Below are positions 37,140-43,957 of a stretch of 64,000 nucleotides of DNA, piece after piece. Made by a program: the position numbers and the translations under genes. The DNA is taken from assembly GCA_937875295.1 (NCBI GenBank), contig CALLXS010000101.1, positions 16,231-80,230 of the forward strand. The letters run 5' to 3'. Source of the stretch: an uncultured bacterium. Lineage in GTDB: Bacteria > Bacteroidota > Ignavibacteria > Kapaibacteriales > UBA2268. The notes beneath the pieces were generated by a model. The model was not told the origin of the DNA. It saw only the letters and a list, made by a program, of their open reading frames with translations, and did not search any database. Within the stretch, counting starts at the first letter, position 1. The number at the start of each line of letters is the position of its first letter.

Positions 37140-39545
37140 TTATTGAACAATAATATTATATTTTATTTTTTGTTCGCCGACTGAAATAATTAAGTTATAA
37201 AATCCACGATTTAATGTATTAATTTGAATTTTATAATTACCGGTCTCTGTTAAATTATTTTTATTTAATATTGATTTATTAATTTGAAAATTTGCATTTG
37301 GTACTTTTTTCCCCAATAAATCAATTAATTCAAAACTAATTTCAGGGATTTCTAAATTAGCACTATTACCTTTGTCTATTCCACCAAGTGCGTCAGATTC
37401 CTCAAAAGTGTAGTCAATATTTATTGTAGATTTTGTGGGATTTGGATATGGATAACTTGTAGAAAATATTGTTTTATTTCCGAAATCACGAGTTGCAATT
37501 GTAATTGATAGTCCGCATTTGGTGTCAACAGAGTTACTCCATATTTTGCCATAACCTTCAAGAAAAATTATTTTTTCGCTACAAAGATCGATTAATCTTA
37601 GAGTGTCATTCTGTTTCCCAAAATCTGTCGGCGAATAACAAATAGAAATAGGTTTAATTTCATTAGGTGCAAACTGTAAAGGCAACTGGCTCTGAGGGAT
37701 AGAAAAGGCAAAATTACCATTTAAAGACAATTTGCTTAAAGTAACTTGTTTAGAACTATTATTCTTAATATAAACATCTAAGCAAGATATATCTTTTGTA
37801 TATAAACTATCAAAATAAGCTGTATCAAGATTATTAAAACTAACTAATTCAAAATAGTCATTTTCGAAATCAATATTATAGCTATAAATTTGGCTAGTAT
37901 CAGCACAACCAAGAATATTTTTTGCAATCACATAAATATTTGCTGATTTATCTAATTCAATGCTATTTGCACCAGATGCAATTAATTGATTATTATCTGC
38001 ATCGTACCAATCTACTTCTTGAGGTGTACTATTCGATATAACAGTATGCTTTTTGCCAGTGCAAAGTGTAATATTGAAACTATCTTGAAGTGCTGCGATA
38101 GGCATGGCAATTATATTTACATTTACAGAATCATAATAAATGCATCCAGTAGTATCAGTCCACGCAAAACTTTTCCATCCATTTGTATTAAAATATCGTG
38201 ACGTATTATTATCACCATCGAACCAAGTAATATTATTAATTGGAGAATTAATTGAAACTAATACTGAGTCGCCATCGCAGGCTTCATAAAGAGCATTATT
38301 ATTAAATGTCAAATTAGATTTTGGCATAAGAGTAATTTCAATTGAATTAGAAGTACCGCTATCGCATTCATTTGTAGATGATTTTAAGTAATAAACTCCC
38401 GGTTTATTTACTACAATTTGCTGAGTAGTTTCTCCGGTGTTCCAGATTAAATTCTGATAATTGAGATTTGCTTTAATAATAGCATAATCGCCAGCACAAA
38501 GTTGTACTTTATCAGCTGAAATCTTAGGATTAATTGTATCTGTAATAGGTTTATATTTATATACTCCATTGCCAACTACCCATCCAGTAGTATCATCAAG
38601 AAAATATAAATCATCTAAATGAGCTCCGGGAGAAATTCCACAAAATTTTGGTGTCCAAGTTTTACCATAATCTTTTGTAAAATAAATTGATCTATCGAGA
38701 CCACACACCCAACCAGTACTATCATTTAAAAGAAATGAGCCATAGCAAGCAGTAGGGAAGTCTCTTTGAATCCAATTTTTACCGAAATCAGAAGAAAAAA
38801 CAGCACCACCTCTTGCTTGAGATCCAGCACAACTATAATCATATGGTACTAAGATTGAATTTTTAAGTATTGATAATTCTTCGTGCCAATTATTAGCTTT
38901 GATTTTAGTTATCATACTCCAAGAAGTTCCGTAATTTAAGGTCTGCCACAACATTCCGCTTGATACAGCATATCCAGTACCATTATCGTAAAGAACAATA
39001 TCAGAAAGTTTTGAATCATTAATTGAAAAATTATCATAGTGAACTTGATAAGTCCAAGAATTTCCACCATCAGTAGTTTTAAAGAAATATCTATCAGTGC
39101 AAAATCCCCCCACTAGTACGCCTTGATTTTCATTTATAAAATAAGTACCCCAGAAAGATACATCAGTCCTAGGAGACACATCTCTCCAGCTTACTCCACC
39201 ATTATCGGTTCTATATAAGCGAGAATATCTTACATCTCCTCCTGAAGAACCGACACTTACTACATATCCTACTCTTTCATTTAAAAAAATTATTGATTCT
39301 AATTGTCCAGCATAAGGGATTTGAGAACCCGACCAAGTATTTCCTCTATCTGTGCTACGCAAAAGCATTCCATTAAAACCGCATATCCACGCATAATTTG
39401 GATTCTGCGGCAAAAAGAACACTTCTAACCAATAATTATTAATAAACTGCTGTGGAATTGTTTGTACTTCTTCCCATTGAGAAAATACACTAATTGGAAA
39501 AAGTAAGCAAGCAATATAAAGTATAAATCTATTTGATAATTTCAT
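37140..39545 (-). CDS. BNR/Asp-box repeat beta-propeller protein with C-terminal T9SS sorting domain
   Basis: Signal peptide. Six or more SxDxGxTW repeats (STDRGNTW, TDNGGVSW, TTDGGNSW, NYGTSW, SDFGKNW, TKDYGKTW). C-terminus GNYKIQINTLNRGFYNLIISVGEQKIKYNIIVQ. Confidence 0.75.
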   Translation of the reverse strand: MKLSNRFILYIACLLFPISVFSQWEEVQTIPQQFINNYWLEVFFLPQNPNYAWICGFNGMLLRSTDRGNTWSGSQIPYAGQLESIIFLNERVGYVVSVGSSGGDVRYSRLYRTDNGGVSWRDVSPRTDVSFWGTYFINENQGVLVGGFCTDRYFFKTTDGGNSWTYQVHYDNFSINDSKLSDIVLYDNGTGYAVSSGMLWQTLNYGTSWSMITKIKANNWHEELSILKNSILVPYDYSCAGSQARGGAVFSSDFGKNWIQRDFPTACYGSFLLNDSTGWVCGLDRSIYFTKDYGKTWTPKFCGISPGAHLDDLYFLDDTTGWVVGNGVYKYKPITDTINPKISADKVQLCAGDYAIIKANLNYQNLIWNTGETTQQIVVNKPGVYYLKSSTNECDSGTSNSIEITLMPKSNLTFNNNALYEACDGDSVLVSINSPINNITWFDGDNNTSRYFNTNGWKSFAWTDTTGCIYYDSVNVNIIAMPIAALQDSFNITLCTGKKHTVISNSTPQEVDWYDADNNQLIASGANSIELDKSANIYVIAKNILGCADTSQIYSYNIDFENDYFELVSFNNLDTAYFDSLYTKDISCLDVYIKNNSSKQVTLSKLSLNGNFAFSIPQSQLPLQFAPNEIKPISICYSPTDFGKQNDTLRLIDLCSEKIIFLEGYGKIWSNSVDTKCGLSITIATRDFGNKTIFSTSYPYPNPTKSTINIDYTFEESDALGGIDKGNSANLEIPEISFELIDLLGKKVPNANFQINKSILNKNNLTETGNYKIQINTLNRGFYNLIISVGEQKIKYNIIVQ

Positions 39546-39662: not shown

Positions 39663-40517
39663 TTAATCCTCAACTAATTTAATTGCTTCGTACTTTTCGC
39701 AAGATTCTACACATTTCCCGCAATCTACACATAGAGTAGAATCTATTTTGGCAACATGATTATTATATTTAATGGCATCGTACTTTTCGCAAAATACTTT
39801 GCAGTCACCGCAAGAAGTACAAATATCTTGATTAATGGTAGGTTTTGCATAATCTAATGGATATAGCTTTGAAATTGCATTAAATTCATTACATTCTGCT
39901 AAACAAAGTCCGCAGTGATTACACAGCTCTTCATTTTTTGTAACTTTTGCTGGATTAATGGCTTCAAATGGGCATTTCCCCACACATTTTCCACATTTTG
40001 TACATTTAGATAAATCAATAATACATTTATCTTTTATCGTAATTGCACCAAATTCACAAGCTAATTGGCACTGATGATGGCAGTTAGTAGGTTTGCACTT
40101 ATTACGTATGGAATAAGTTTCTTTGGAATATGATATGCAATTCCCTTCGTTTATACATTTTTCTATACATTTACCACAACCTATACATTTATCCTCTAAA
40201 ATATTATAAGTGGGAGTGGAGATAAATATTGCTTTATCTTTGCATTGGGGTTCGCAAGTGCCACATTCAATGCATAGGTCTTGATTTATAAAATATTGTG
40301 TTTTTTGAGGCAAAAGGATTGCTTTATAATAGCAACTTTCTACACAATCACCGCACCCAGTGCATTTATCTTCGATAATAGCATATTTAGTTCTAAATGG
40401 ACTTAATACATTTTTTGTACAAGAACTCATAAATAAACTACCTGAGCATATTCCTATACCTAAAATTCCACAATCTTTTAGGAATTTTCTTCTGTTATTA
40501 ATTGATTTATTTTCCAT
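39663..40517 (-). CDS. Tat-signal polyferredoxin with about 7-8 [4Fe-4S] cluster motifs
   Basis: N-terminal NNRRKFLKDCGILGIGI twin-arginine motif. Seven canonical CxxCxxCxxxC(P/E) motifs plus one degenerate Cys cluster. Confidence 0.8.
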   Translation of the reverse strand: MENKSINNRRKFLKDCGILGIGICSGSLFMSSCTKNVLSPFRTKYAIIEDKCTGCGDCVESCYYKAILLPQKTQYFINQDLCIECGTCEPQCKDKAIFISTPTYNILEDKCIGCGKCIEKCINEGNCISYSKETYSIRNKCKPTNCHHQCQLACEFGAITIKDKCIIDLSKCTKCGKCVGKCPFEAINPAKVTKNEELCNHCGLCLAECNEFNAISKLYPLDYAKPTINQDICTSCGDCKVFCEKYDAIKYNNHVAKIDSTLCVDCGKCVESCEKYEAIKLVED

Positions 40518-40529
40518 TTTGTTTTATTA

Positions 40530-41858
40530 TTAAATTGCAAATCTAAATTCAACTCTTCCGAAATAAGTGTCTTTTATTAATTTTGTGGAAGTAATATGCC
40601 CCCCAATTAAAGTTGTTTTTAGATGATTAAAAAATCTAGCGCTTAATTCTAAATCTAATTCTTTAGTGTGGCTACCATTTGTTTGGCCAGAATATTGTAC
40701 TTTAAAATACATATTGTTTAACCAAGGAAAATCAAATTTTGTAAATAATTGAAAAACTGGCAAATCTAATGCATCCATTTTCATTACTTCACCAATAAAT
40801 AAATTAGTATATGAAGGATAAAACATTGTATTTTTATCTAATTCAATTTTGCCCACCATTGCTGCCCCAATCAAAGAGTTATACCCTTCTCCGAGTTTAA
40901 ATAATTTACTTAATTCAAGGAAATATCCAAAAGCTCTCTCTTTATATACATACTGATAAAGTAATTCAGTTTTTAAATTAATACTTAGTGGTAAATTAAA
41001 TTTGGAAAACAGCCCACCATAGTATTTGTAATCAGGAAATACTTCACCAAATTCTCCGTAGAAAATACTTCCTACTTCGCTGACAAATGGGATATTTTCT
41101 GTATCAGTAGCAAATTCAGAAAATTCATCTTCATCGCCTTCAGATTCTGAATTAGTAACTGCTTTAGTTTCTTGACTACTATTATTTACCCATTTTACTG
41201 AAGCAGCATAGAAATTTGATTCTCCAAAATTCTGTCCTAAGAAATCTACTCTGCCACCTCTTGTAAGGTTATAGACATGGCGAGTACCACAAAAATCTCC
41301 GTATCTAGCAAATTGCGCCAGTACAGTAGCAATATTTACTGCGTAAACCAAATTACCAGAACGATAGGAAGCACCTGCACCTACTACTCTTTCATCTACT
41401 AAGAAATAATCTTGTAATTTTGTAGTTTGTAGTCCTAATGAAAGCTTGATATTTTCTGAATTGAAATTGTAATAAAATTCTCTAAACCCCCAATGCTTTT
41501 TATCAACGGCAGAAAATTGTTCATAACCCGGATAATTAATAGTATCGTTCCCTTGCTTACCGGGACCGCCCTTAGAGTTATAAAAATTTTTATATCCACC
41601 TTCTACATAAAACTGATGCTTAGACTCCTTCAAATTTAAGCCTAAACCAGCTATTGCAAGACCATTTTTTACATTTCTATCAGTCATTCCAGCCATTGCT
41701 CCAGTTAATTCAATACCCCCTACAAAATACTTAGAACCAAATAATGGCTTAATTTGAGTATTTAGAATGCTTCTGCAGTCCATCGAAGAATAGCTATTAA
41801 TAGAATTCATAATTAAAAAACATATTATCGAGATTGCTCTAAAATGCTTTGAATTCAT
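40530..41858 (-). CDS. putative outer-membrane beta-barrel protein (signal peptide; co-oriented with the polyferredoxin, 12-bp gap)
   Basis: Signal peptide. Alternating-hydrophobic beta-strand pattern with an aromatic-rich C-terminus (...RVEFRFAI). No family could be assigned. Confidence 0.4.
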   Translation of the reverse strand: MNSKHFRAISIICFLIMNSINSYSSMDCRSILNTQIKPLFGSKYFVGGIELTGAMAGMTDRNVKNGLAIAGLGLNLKESKHQFYVEGGYKNFYNSKGGPGKQGNDTINYPGYEQFSAVDKKHWGFREFYYNFNSENIKLSLGLQTTKLQDYFLVDERVVGAGASYRSGNLVYAVNIATVLAQFARYGDFCGTRHVYNLTRGGRVDFLGQNFGESNFYAASVKWVNNSSQETKAVTNSESEGDEDEFSEFATDTENIPFVSEVGSIFYGEFGEVFPDYKYYGGLFSKFNLPLSINLKTELLYQYVYKERAFGYFLELSKLFKLGEGYNSLIGAAMVGKIELDKNTMFYPSYTNLFIGEVMKMDALDLPVFQLFTKFDFPWLNNMYFKVQYSGQTNGSHTKELDLELSARFFNHLKTTLIGGHITSTKLIKDTYFGRVEFRFAI

Positions 41859-42122
41859 TGGTATTTATTAGTTCATTTATTAATTGAAATATTGTTTAAT
41901 TACATTATTCACTTAGTAATTAAAAACACAAATTTATATAAATGCAAAAATATATAAATTAAATTTTAAAAAACTAATTCAATTAGAAAAAAAAATTTTA
42001 GACATTAAAAAACTAAAAAAGTTTAAATTATGTGCTAAGAAAATCGTAATTTTATGTTTTGTATATTAAATCTTAAATAAAGTAATAAATTTAAATTATA
42101 AACAAATATAGGAATTATAATA

Positions 42123-43640
42123 ATGAAAAAATTAGTTTTATTAATCCTCGTAAGTACGTTAGCTATTGCATTTATGAGTTGCAATAAACAAGAAGGAAAT
42201 GTAATGAATACTGAACCGAAAGAAGTGCAAGAACTTAAAGACAAATTATCAGCATTTACTGAATATGAAATAACTACTGATTTGTCTGCGCTTACAGAAA
42301 ATGAGAAAAAAGTCGTGCAGAAATTAGTTGAAGCTGCTAAATTAGCTGATGTAATTTTCTGGAAGCAATCAAATGCTGATGGCATTGCTATCCGTGATTC
42401 TCTCGCTAAATTAAATACTCCATTTGCCAAAGATTTATTAAAATTTGTAAATATTAACTATGGTCCTTATGACGTAATCTTTAGTCAAACTCGTTTCGTT
42501 GGTGATGGTCCGAGCAAAAAACCAGCCGGAGCTAATTTATATCCAGCTGATTTAACTAAAGAAGATTTCGAAAAATATGTGAAAGATCATCCAGAGCAAA
42601 AAGCAGAACTCGAAAGCCAATATACTATAGTTAAGCGTGATGGCGATAAATTAATCGCTGTTCCATATTATAAAGAATATCCGGAAATTGAGCAAATCGC
42701 AAAATTGATTGATGAAGCAAGTGAATTTGCTGATGATCCATCATTAAAAAGATATTTAAAAATTAGAGCTAAAGCTTTTAGAACAGATGATTATTTTGAA
42801 AGCGATATGGCTTGGATGGATATGACTAAATCGAACATTGAGACTGTAATTGGACCTATTGAAAATTATTTAGATAATTTATTTAATTATAAAACAGCTT
42901 GGGAATGCGGTGTATTTGTAAAAGATGAAGAAGCAACAAAAGAATTACAAGTACTTAAATCAAAAATTGATAATTTAGAACAGAATTTACCTTACGACAA
43001 AAAATATATTCGACCAAGTGCTGGCGGATTAGGTAATGTCTTAAATATTGTGAATGTAGTATATTTCGCTGGCGACTTCCAAGAAGCTGTGAAAACTATT
43101 GCTACTTCTCTGCCTAATGACCCAAAAGTCCATGAAATCAAAGGATCGAAAAAACTTATGTTCAAAAATATGATGGAAGCGAAATTCGAGAAAATAGTGA
43201 TGCCGATTGCTCAAGAATTAATGAGTGAAGAAGATGTAAAATTCGTTGATAAAAAAGCTTTTACAAGTTTCGTAACTCTTCACGAAATTTCTCATACTTT
43301 AGGTAGAGGCTTCGTATTTGGAAATGATAAATTATCGGTTCGCGCTGGAATGAAAGATTTATATTCTACTATCGAAGAAGCAAAAGCAGACATATTAAGT
43401 ATGTATAATCATCAATATTTAATTGAACAAAGCGTATATCCGCAAGATTATTTACGTAAAGCTACTGCTACTTATTTAGCAGGTCTTTTCCGCTCAATGA
43501 GATTTGGTAAAGAAGAAGCTCACGGTGGTGCTAATTTCATTCAATTCAATTTCTTACGTTCTAACGGTGCGATTGAACTAGTAGATGGAAAATTTAAAAT
43601 AAATAATGAAATATTTATGCAAAAATATGTATATATATGA
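42123..43640 (+). CDS. HExxH zinc metallopeptidase lipoprotein (gluzincin-like: HEISH ... EEAKAD); reading frame continues after an in-frame TGA to 43811
   Basis: Lipobox AFMSC. HEISHTLG and a downstream ExxxD motif. The next 56 in-frame codons (43641-43808) are stop-free and protein-like. Confidence 0.7.
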   Translation: MKKLVLLILVSTLAIAFMSCNKQEGNVMNTEPKEVQELKDKLSAFTEYEITTDLSALTENEKKVVQKLVEAAKLADVIFWKQSNADGIAIRDSLAKLNTPFAKDLLKFVNINYGPYDVIFSQTRFVGDGPSKKPAGANLYPADLTKEDFEKYVKDHPEQKAELESQYTIVKRDGDKLIAVPYYKEYPEIEQIAKLIDEASEFADDPSLKRYLKIRAKAFRTDDYFESDMAWMDMTKSNIETVIGPIENYLDNLFNYKTAWECGVFVKDEEATKELQVLKSKIDNLEQNLPYDKKYIRPSAGGLGNVLNIVNVVYFAGDFQEAVKTIATSLPNDPKVHEIKGSKKLMFKNMMEAKFEKIVMPIAQELMSEEDVKFVDKKAFTSFVTLHEISHTLGRGFVFGNDKLSVRAGMKDLYSTIEEAKADILSMYNHQYLIEQSVYPQDYLRKATATYLAGLFRSMRFGKEEAHGGANFIQFNFLRSNGAIELVDGKFKINNEIFMQKYVYI

Positions 43641-43957
43641 ATTGAAAAAAAATCTAAAATTGTTCTTACATTAGAAGCAGAAGGCGACTATGTCGGAGCC
43701 ACAGATCTTATTGCTAAATATGGTCACGAAAATAAAGAAATCGAAGATGCAATTGCAAAATTGTCTAAAATACCAAGAGATTTAGATACAAAATATAATA
43801 TTAAGTACTAATGAATTTGAGAACAGAAAAAATATTTTAAGAAATAGAATTATATTTTATTAATTCTTTTATAATATTTTTTTAATTAATCTTGAATTAA
43901 ATAATTCTTGTAAAAATAAAGTTTAGTTATTATAATAAATAAATCAGTTAAAAAATT

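Follow-up and report, generated by a model that had tools for sequence, protein, structure and literature searches.

To our knowledge, all well-described routes by which respiratory electrons reach or cross the outer membrane use c-type cytochromes. A 64,000-nucleotide (nt) stretch of DNA from an uncultured Kapaibacteriales bacterium (contig CALLXS010000101.1, positions 16,231 to 80,230; hereafter the window, which always means the whole stretch) raises the question of whether a pathway of another kind is encoded there. The window carries two adjoining genes, here termed B and P, for a predicted outer-membrane beta-barrel and a predicted polyferredoxin. A sequence-only reading had proposed that they follow the gene-pair logic of the MtrAB and PioAB conduits, with an iron-sulfur (FeS) wire in place of the multihaem cytochrome. 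The answer that we favour, at about even confidence, is that B and P form the outer half of a four-protein envelope redox system, S-F-B-P (S and F being partner genes found in relatives), which is encoded here at two loci and in which F passes electrons to P while B serves as a solute channel. The observations behind this answer are the domain content, the export signals, the size and fold class of the barrel, synteny, the covariation of a CPC motif in F with the presence of P, and natural gene fusions.

The pairing had been put forward as undescribed, and we likewise found no description of the cassette in the literature searched, which dealt with polyferredoxins, NapH, porins, extracellular electron transfer and Ignavibacteria. 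The Gallionellaceae pangenome paper covers cytochrome conduits only.

Results

The pair is part of a larger cassette

Loci were gathered through B and independently through P and then scored with profile hidden Markov models (HMMs), covering about 35 related lineages. Three architectures were found among these relatives, namely S-F-B-P, S-F-B without P, and B-P alone. S and F precede B in every relative with upstream sequence, except in the window lineage and the L047/L048 lineage; tblastn and profile HMM scoring of the 64-kb window detected neither gene. Several independent assemblies agree on the pair-only layout of the window lineage. The second pair-only lineage, L047/L048, is unrelated, its B being 36% identical to that of the window, and in L047 the B and P genes overlap by 4 nt. 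P lies directly 3' of a B gene in five of five P-anchored look-ups and in all other P-bearing loci. The neighbourhood comparison that had been suggested for related genomes thus upholds the pairing in one direction only: P always follows B, but one whole clade keeps S, F, and B without P. In a neighbour-joining tree of B, the P-less loci form one derived clade, the P-bearing loci are deep and paraphyletic, and the two pair-only lineages are independent of each other.

The B family comprises 172 clusters at 50% identity. The hosts of the cassette are anaerobic Bacteroidota, Ignavibacteriota, Gemmatimonadota, and related phyla from anoxic digesters and sediments, including one cultured organism, Labilibacter sediminis CG51. 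A molybdopterin oxidoreductase beside P had been named as an observation that would change the interpretation; neither this nor any other catalytic subunit was seen in any locus examined, and no NapAB or NosZ genes were seen in the approximately 35 lineages. A NosD-like neighbour occurs in one lineage, L049. The flanks of the P-less clade often hold a TetR regulator (13 loci) and MMPL, DUF1302, and LolA-like/DUF1329 genes (6–9 loci), as in L014, L018, L025, L028, L030–L032, L034, and L040; these flanking genes are a known but uncharacterised envelope gene set.

F is a membrane protein of 290–490 amino acids (aa) with the Pfam domain Fer4_5, and its best NCBIfam matches are NapH/MauN (7.8e-22), NapH (2.4e-21), and NosR (1.8e-20). 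For the F of L006, TIGR02163 gives 78 bits (cut-off 213) and NF007013 gives 76 bits (cut-off 234); by these scores F is related to the NapH family but is not a member of it. Five helices (oriented by the positive-inside rule) are predicted, along with a signal peptide, a Cys-rich acidic tail in the periplasm, and a cytoplasmic ferredoxin domain. The motifs present are two for cytoplasmic [4Fe-4S] clusters, CX3C(H/P), and CPC; hydropathy and the positive-inside rule place CPC at a periplasmic helix end and the 2x[4Fe-4S] domain in the cytoplasm. In all 13 F proteins from P-bearing loci we found GGCPC together with WCGWxCHLG, whereas 17 of the 18 from P-less loci have GG-PG and FCGWxCYLG, the remaining one being intermediate. 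The derived clade without P has therefore also lost the periplasm-facing CPC of F.

Most loci have overlapping F and B genes, and the two are fused in frame in three database clusters (P0203, P0204, and P0206; 856–904 aa; 42–45% mutual identity). The fusions keep the B signal peptide as an internal hydrophobic segment with an AxA-Q site, which implies internal cleavage or an unusual biogenesis route. Repeated acidic-aromatic DEF motifs, in up to ten copies, are found in the periplasmic N-terminal tail of F and in the B loop 225–258, and within each genome (L001–L058) the repeats of F and B are similar in local sequence. S is a secreted protein of roughly 100–125 aa with a Sec signal and three conserved Cys, and it matched no family in Pfam or NCBIfam. 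It is mostly basic (isoelectric point 8.4–9.6) and may bind the DEF repeats.

S and F at a second locus

A search with the F protein of the closest relative retrieved P0285 (66% identity), an F of the CPC/CHLG type. Its contigs carry S and F but no B gene; after the two genes come a T-run hairpin and, in convergent orientation, a gene for an M20 peptidase. P0285 occurs in three samples, two of which (SRR28678186 and SRR28678183) also carry the B-P contigs of the window. A 100% identical copy lies on L056, a 16.8-kb fermentation-metagenome contig with a GC (guanine plus cytosine) fraction of 0.299 and a tetranucleotide correlation to the window of r = 0.995; for comparison, 13-kb pieces of the window itself give 0.992–0.997 and the closest other lineage gives 0.949. 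Because of the identical F copy, the matching composition, and the co-occurrence in samples, the window organism very probably encodes S and F at a second locus and thus possesses all four parts. The earlier statement that no partner lies nearby holds for the 64-kb window, and for catalytic subunits it holds in every locus; for the family it does not hold, given F and S, and probably not for the genome either. Likewise, the supposed lack of a membrane dehydrogenase partner fails at the family level, where F is NapH-like, and very probably in the window organism too.

Both loci are embedded among housekeeping genes. Upstream of the S gene, positions 1–3200 of L056 show no listed open reading frame (ORF) of at least 100 aa and no Rfam match; the likeliest cause is presumably a long ORF that runs past the end of the locus.

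P is a predicted Tat-exported lipoprotein with eight clusters

The N-terminal sequence of P is MENKSINNRRKFLKD. It bears the signal for twin-arginine translocation (Tat) that had been recognised earlier, NRRKFLK at aa 8–14, and the arginine pair is invariant in an alignment of 22 homologues. The remainder is, as had been described, made up of FeS motifs: seven are canonical CxxCxxCxxxC motifs, with first Cys at C52, C82, C111, C172, C199, C233, and C263, and the eighth is the variant C141-x4-C146-x3-C150-x3-C154. All 28 canonical Cys and C146, C150, and C154 are invariant in the 22-member alignment and C141 is at least 90% conserved; the eighth cluster is plausible because the Cys of the variant motif are conserved in this way. 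Eight clusters in four clostridial-type domains are thus a sound reading of the sequence. Pfam Fer4 matches P at E = 1e-30 over 6–7 stretches. The family is sharply bounded in homologue searches, with about 25 proteins at E<=1e-46 followed by generic RnfB/Eha ferredoxin scores; its members are mostly acidic and have 8–12 clusters.

Cys33 is also invariant and always stands in an L/F/I-x-[S/A/G]-C lipobox, and P is therefore predicted to be a Tat-exported lipoprotein, a lipid anchor being new relative to the sequence-only reading. The Bacteroidota-type surface-export motif, in the form that we take it to have, does not follow the lipidated Cys anywhere in the 22-member alignment.

The AlphaFold2 (AF2) model of P has a predicted local distance difference test (pLDDT) score of 79, and its single domains superpose on clostridial ferredoxins at 1.5–1.9 A. 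The closest solved sequences are MvhB (3.6e-34) and FwdF (4e-22). The NapG-type model NF007012 gives 35 bits against a cut-off of 269 and covers only the signal and first motif, while VhuB gives 45 bits (cut-off 600) and FwdF 41 bits (cut-off 375). The distinction drawn earlier between P and NapG, NrfC, or DmsB is sustained, and P is instead of the archaeal MvhB/FwdF polyferredoxin type.

B is a predicted 18-strand barrel with a narrow lumen

B matched nothing in Pfam or NCBIfam at E<0.1, and the best match of its profile to PDB sequences was no lower than E = 0.16. An AF2 model built with 16 homologues has 18 long antiparallel strands (pLDDT 70; predicted template modelling score 0.69). Together with a Sec-type signal peptide, this model supports the proposed assignment of B as an outer-membrane barrel. 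The fold matches the 18-strand monomeric channels of the OprD/Occ and AlgE type in structural comparison, and MtrB is a poor match. The aromatic C-terminus ascribed to B is not present, as the last residue here is Ile (..FRFAI); among 96 relatives, 61 end in Phe and 11 in Ile.

The mature homologues share the start (A)Q-M-D-C-R-S. Only two Cys are conserved in 96 sequences, C28 (91%) and C190 (92%), and their simplest interpretation would be a Cys28–Cys190 disulfide. CxxCH occurs in none of the 96 full-length family members, and a haem site in B was rejected on that ground. Two further candidate sites were rejected: His194 as a family-wide ligand, which does not reach 85% conservation across the 96 sequences, and a Met-rich Cu(I) site in loop 340–367, in which the Met residues vary among homologues. 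The conserved residues of B are rich in acidic side chains, and the long loops aa 180–214 (model span) and 340–367 rank among its best-conserved segments. By strand parity, the loop aa 225–258 would be the only long periplasmic turn.

With 18 strands and a shear number of about 20, standard barrel geometry gives a C-alpha diameter of about 33 A and a lumen of about 20 A before loop in-folding, and a clostridial ferredoxin domain is about 25–30 A wide. Because the lumen is narrower than the domain, the loops are conserved, CxxCH is absent, and only two Cys are conserved, an FeS wire threaded through B in the manner of MtrAB is sterically unlikely on this model. B looks like a narrow solute channel and not like a sheath around an electron wire.

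Features of the window locus

The B and P ORFs were verified at the coordinates in Table 1; both are on the minus strand with 12 nt between them. The frequency of TAnnTTTG in the surrounding AT-rich DNA is 2.1 per kb, and the two copies upstream of B are therefore a weak match. Scans for sigma-70 promoters and terminators gave fewer matches than in shuffled sequence. The haem-binding motif CxxCH was found in none of the ORFs of at least 80 aa in the whole window (1–64000).

Table 1. Features of the B-P locus, in window coordinates
Feature	Coordinates	Strand	Basis
B, 442-aa outer-membrane protein, predicted 18-strand beta-barrel channel	40530..41858	-	structure model
B signal peptide, about aa 1–25, Sec type, no RR	41784..41858	-	sequence reading
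B Cys28, near mature N-terminus	41775..41777	-	invariant (n=16); 91% conserved (n=96)
B motif F-C-G-T-R-H, aa 189–194, in conserved long loop joining strands 7 and 8	41277..41294	-	alignment and model
B acidic disordered loop, aa 225–258, with DEFxxF motif	41085..41186	-	pLDDT <50
B C-terminal strand, beta-signal-like (..GRVEFRFAI)	40533..40559	-	sequence and homologue alignment
B-P spacer, 12 nt	40518..40529	-	scan: free of terminator-like site
P, 284-aa predicted Tat-exported lipoprotein polyferredoxin, four tandem clostridial-type 2x[4Fe-4S] domains	39663..40517	-	motifs, alignment, model
P twin-arginine motif N-R-R-K-F-L-K, aa 8–14	40476..40496	-	R9 and R10 invariant in 22 homologues
P lipobox M-S-S-C, aa 30–33	40419..40430	-	C33 invariant in 22 homologues
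P FeS region, aa 45–284, 7 canonical motifs and C141x4C146x3C150x3C154	39666..40385	-	sequence, Pfam, alignment
Two TAnnTTTG motifs, 70 and 86 nt upstream of B start; possible Bacteroidota-type -7 elements	41929..41952	-	weak match

The gene at 37140–39545 (minus strand), 117 nt downstream of P, encodes an 801-aa secreted protein that combines BNR/Ycf48-like and Sortilin-Vps10 repeats with Ig-like domains and a C-terminal sorting domain of the type IX secretion system (T9SS). It was rejected as a member of the system, as it adjoins the cassette in no relative, and is probably unrelated. Divergent from B, at 42123–43800 (plus strand), lies a gene for an M49-family lipoprotein peptidase. Relative to the otherwise 99.7% identical assembly L043, this gene has a 15-nt insertion with a stop codon; its product has 505 aa instead of 557, and the C-terminal 56 residues are lost.

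Neighbouring genes in relatives

ArsP_1 permeases with Cys pairs, one of them with an HMA domain, directly follow P in five lineages, three of which also have an S-like paralogue. In L033, L036, and L037, the order 3' of P is an S-like secreted protein of 123–132 aa without the N-terminal Cys and then the ArsP_1 permease. L057/L058 have a cluster for an extracytoplasmic function (ECF) sigma factor, FecR, S, F, B, P, a TonB-dependent receptor, and the ferritin-like DUF2202, a cluster that resembles a cell-surface signalling iron-uptake locus in style. A TonB-dependent receptor and DUF2202 are near the cassette in L002/L003, a TonB-dependent receptor follows B in L026, and in Labilibacter sediminis CG51 the complete S-F-B-P cassette adjoins genes for an ECF sigma factor and a putative zf-HC2 anti-sigma factor, with Metal_resist nearby. 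An Rrf2 regulator is also among the neighbours. Taken together, these recurrent genes point weakly to metal or metalloid handling.

Discussion

We propose that F, as a NapH/NosR-like inner-membrane protein, takes electrons from menaquinol or a cytoplasmic donor and passes them to P. Judging from its motifs, P would fold and acquire its eight [4Fe-4S] clusters in the cytoplasm before Tat exports it, and lipidated Cys33 would then anchor it to a membrane. It may act as a periplasmic electron wire. B would be a narrow 18-strand outer-membrane channel that does not hold P but lets a small solute, possibly related to metals, enter or leave; P would reduce or oxidise this solute in the periplasm. 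S is a basic Cys protein, and the acidic DEF repeats on F and B probably hold or shuttle components between both membranes.

Several points weigh against this explanation. L056 was assigned to the genome of the window by composition and co-occurrence and not by a joined assembly. The covariation of CPC and P is essentially one evolutionary event, because the P-less loci form one clade, and that clade keeps S, F, and B, so a periplasmic FeS chain may be dispensable for the core function. The cassette neighbourhoods are heterogeneous. The B model is moderate (pLDDT 70), and the sole grounds for loop in-folding and for the periplasmic placement of the acidic loop are strand parity and conservation.

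In a more specific version of the favoured explanation, the cassette serves the reductive acquisition or detoxification of a metal, most likely iron; B would admit an ion or chelate, S would bind it through Cys/His, and P and F would reduce it before uptake or efflux. NapH-like proteins do act in metal redox, as in the cupric reductase CcoG and in FtrD. The L057/L058 cluster from ECF sigma factor to DUF2202, the TonB-dependent receptors of L002/L003 (with DUF2202) and L026, the ArsP_1 permeases straight after P, the Metal_resist and Rrf2 neighbours, and the acidic conserved residues of B all favour it. However, none of these neighbours is universal, and housekeeping genes surround both the window pair and the L056 locus. 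S carries a Sec signal and no more than three Cys, of which two possibly form a structural disulfide, and no metal-binding motif could be made out. We consider this version unlikely in so specific a form, although it is the strongest of the alternatives.

Somewhat less likely still is the proposal that the system is a cytochrome-free conduit across the outer membrane. F would hand electrons to P, and these would cross the outer membrane through or at B, where P or S would be docked or partly inserted; the acceptor would be extracellular or bound in the pore, for instance Fe(III) or a humic compound, and the flow could also be reversed. A lipid-anchored P with 8–12 clusters would span the periplasm in a haem-free FeS pathway, and electrons would be exchanged at or within the pore of B. 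The strict synteny and the absence of a catalytic subunit from every locus agree with this proposal, as do the anoxic digesters and sediments from which the hosts come and the lack of CxxCH ORFs in the 64-kb window. In addition, the fused F-B proteins and the overlap of the two genes point to a complex that links the inner and outer membranes, and 8–12 clusters would be enough for much of the width of the periplasm. As Cyc2 illustrates, redox chemistry at the outer membrane can be sustained by a small barrel if its pore admits the substrate, and by analogy a substrate may enter B and meet a docked redox centre. Against this stand the dimensions of the lumen relative to a ferredoxin domain, the conserved long loops of B, which are comparable to the constriction loops of OprD, the poor match to MtrB, and the lack of a cofactor motif in B. 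P also lacks the Bacteroidota-type surface-export motif as we presume it to be, and one clade retains B without P. Of the MtrAB/PioAB-type logic with an FeS wire, the conserved adjacency of the two genes stands, but the absence of CxxCH from B, the constant partners F and S, and the P-less clade do not accord with it.

It is improbable that P and F act on Cys28–Cys190 of B, or on S, as a regulatory thiol switch of a redox-gated or stress-related channel with no respiratory or assimilatory role. The conserved Cys pair, with one Cys at the mature N-terminus and the other in a conserved loop, and the ECF sigma/anti-sigma and TetR regulators that adjoin many cassettes are consistent with such a switch, but 8–12 FeS clusters would be excessive for it, the Cys pair is retained in the P-less clade, and no thioredoxin-like component is present. 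That the window pair is a decaying, functionless remnant of a four-gene cassette, as the absence of S and F from its locus might suggest, is very improbable, given that the invariant residues of both families are all intact, several independent assemblies have the same arrangement, the unrelated L047/L048 lineage shares it, and a matching S-F locus exists.

In this cassette a dedicated outer-membrane channel is coupled to a NapH-like membrane protein and to a lipid-anchored polyferredoxin exported by Tat, without a haem protein or catalytic subunit. Even the conservative interpretation defines a new periplasmic FeS electron module, whose substrate may have a bearing on how metals or metalloids are cycled in digesters and sediments. 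If the conduit proposal were true, the system would be a non-cytochrome counterpart of Mtr and Cyc2 in Bacteroidota, Ignavibacteriota, and their relatives. Experimental handles are offered by the CPC motif that tracks with P, the natural F-B fusions, the shared DEF repeats, and the cultured Labilibacter sediminis CG51.

Comparison with known systems

The system resembles NapGH/NosGH in that a membrane protein with Fer4_5, CX3C, and a cytoplasmic 2x[4Fe-4S] domain is accompanied by a Tat-exported periplasmic FeS protein. It differs in that F is far below the family cut-off (78 against 213 bits) and has in addition a signal peptide, a Cys-rich acidic tail in the periplasm, one more helix, and CPC. 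P, for its part, carries a lipid anchor and eight clusters of clostridial type, whereas NapG has four clusters. Moreover, NapAB and NosZ are absent from the loci, and a dedicated barrel and a small Cys protein, S, are added.

As in MtrAB/PioAB, a periplasmic redox protein with several centres and a barrel in the outer membrane are encoded by adjoining, co-oriented genes, and in PioABC a periplasmic FeS protein, the high-potential iron-sulfur protein PioC, also takes part. However, neither B nor P has a haem motif, B has 18 strands instead of 26, P is too wide for the B lumen, and B persists without P in one clade. Cyc2 is similar to B in its small (about 440 aa) barrel, its conserved Cys-containing N-terminal segment, and possibly the logic of a substrate that enters the pore; B differs in the absence of CxxCH (0/96) and in that its redox protein, P, is separate and lipid-anchored.

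OprD/Occ, ChiP, Campylobacter MOMP (major outer membrane protein), and AlgE share the 18-strand monomeric barrel fold with B, although identity is 8–13% and there is no Pfam, NCBIfam, or PDB sequence match. B is further set apart by its long acidic periplasmic loop, its Cys pair, and its translational coupling to a redox membrane protein. MvhB and FwdF, which are tandem clostridial 2x[4Fe-4S] electron wires, are closest to P in sequence and fold. They are cytoplasmic subunits of hydrogenase/heterodisulfide reductase and formylmethanofuran dehydrogenase, respectively, while P, a protein of diderm bacteria, carries a Tat signal and a lipobox and has an unlike global domain arrangement (template modelling score 0.13–0.20); no hydrogenase or Fwd genes were found near P.

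The system thus belongs to none of NapGH/NosGH, OprD/Occ/AlgE, MvhB/FwdF, or the porin-cytochromes. By analogy, its closest functional counterpart would be NapGH/NosGH, and its closest structural counterparts would be OprD/Occ/AlgE for B and FwdF/MvhB for P.

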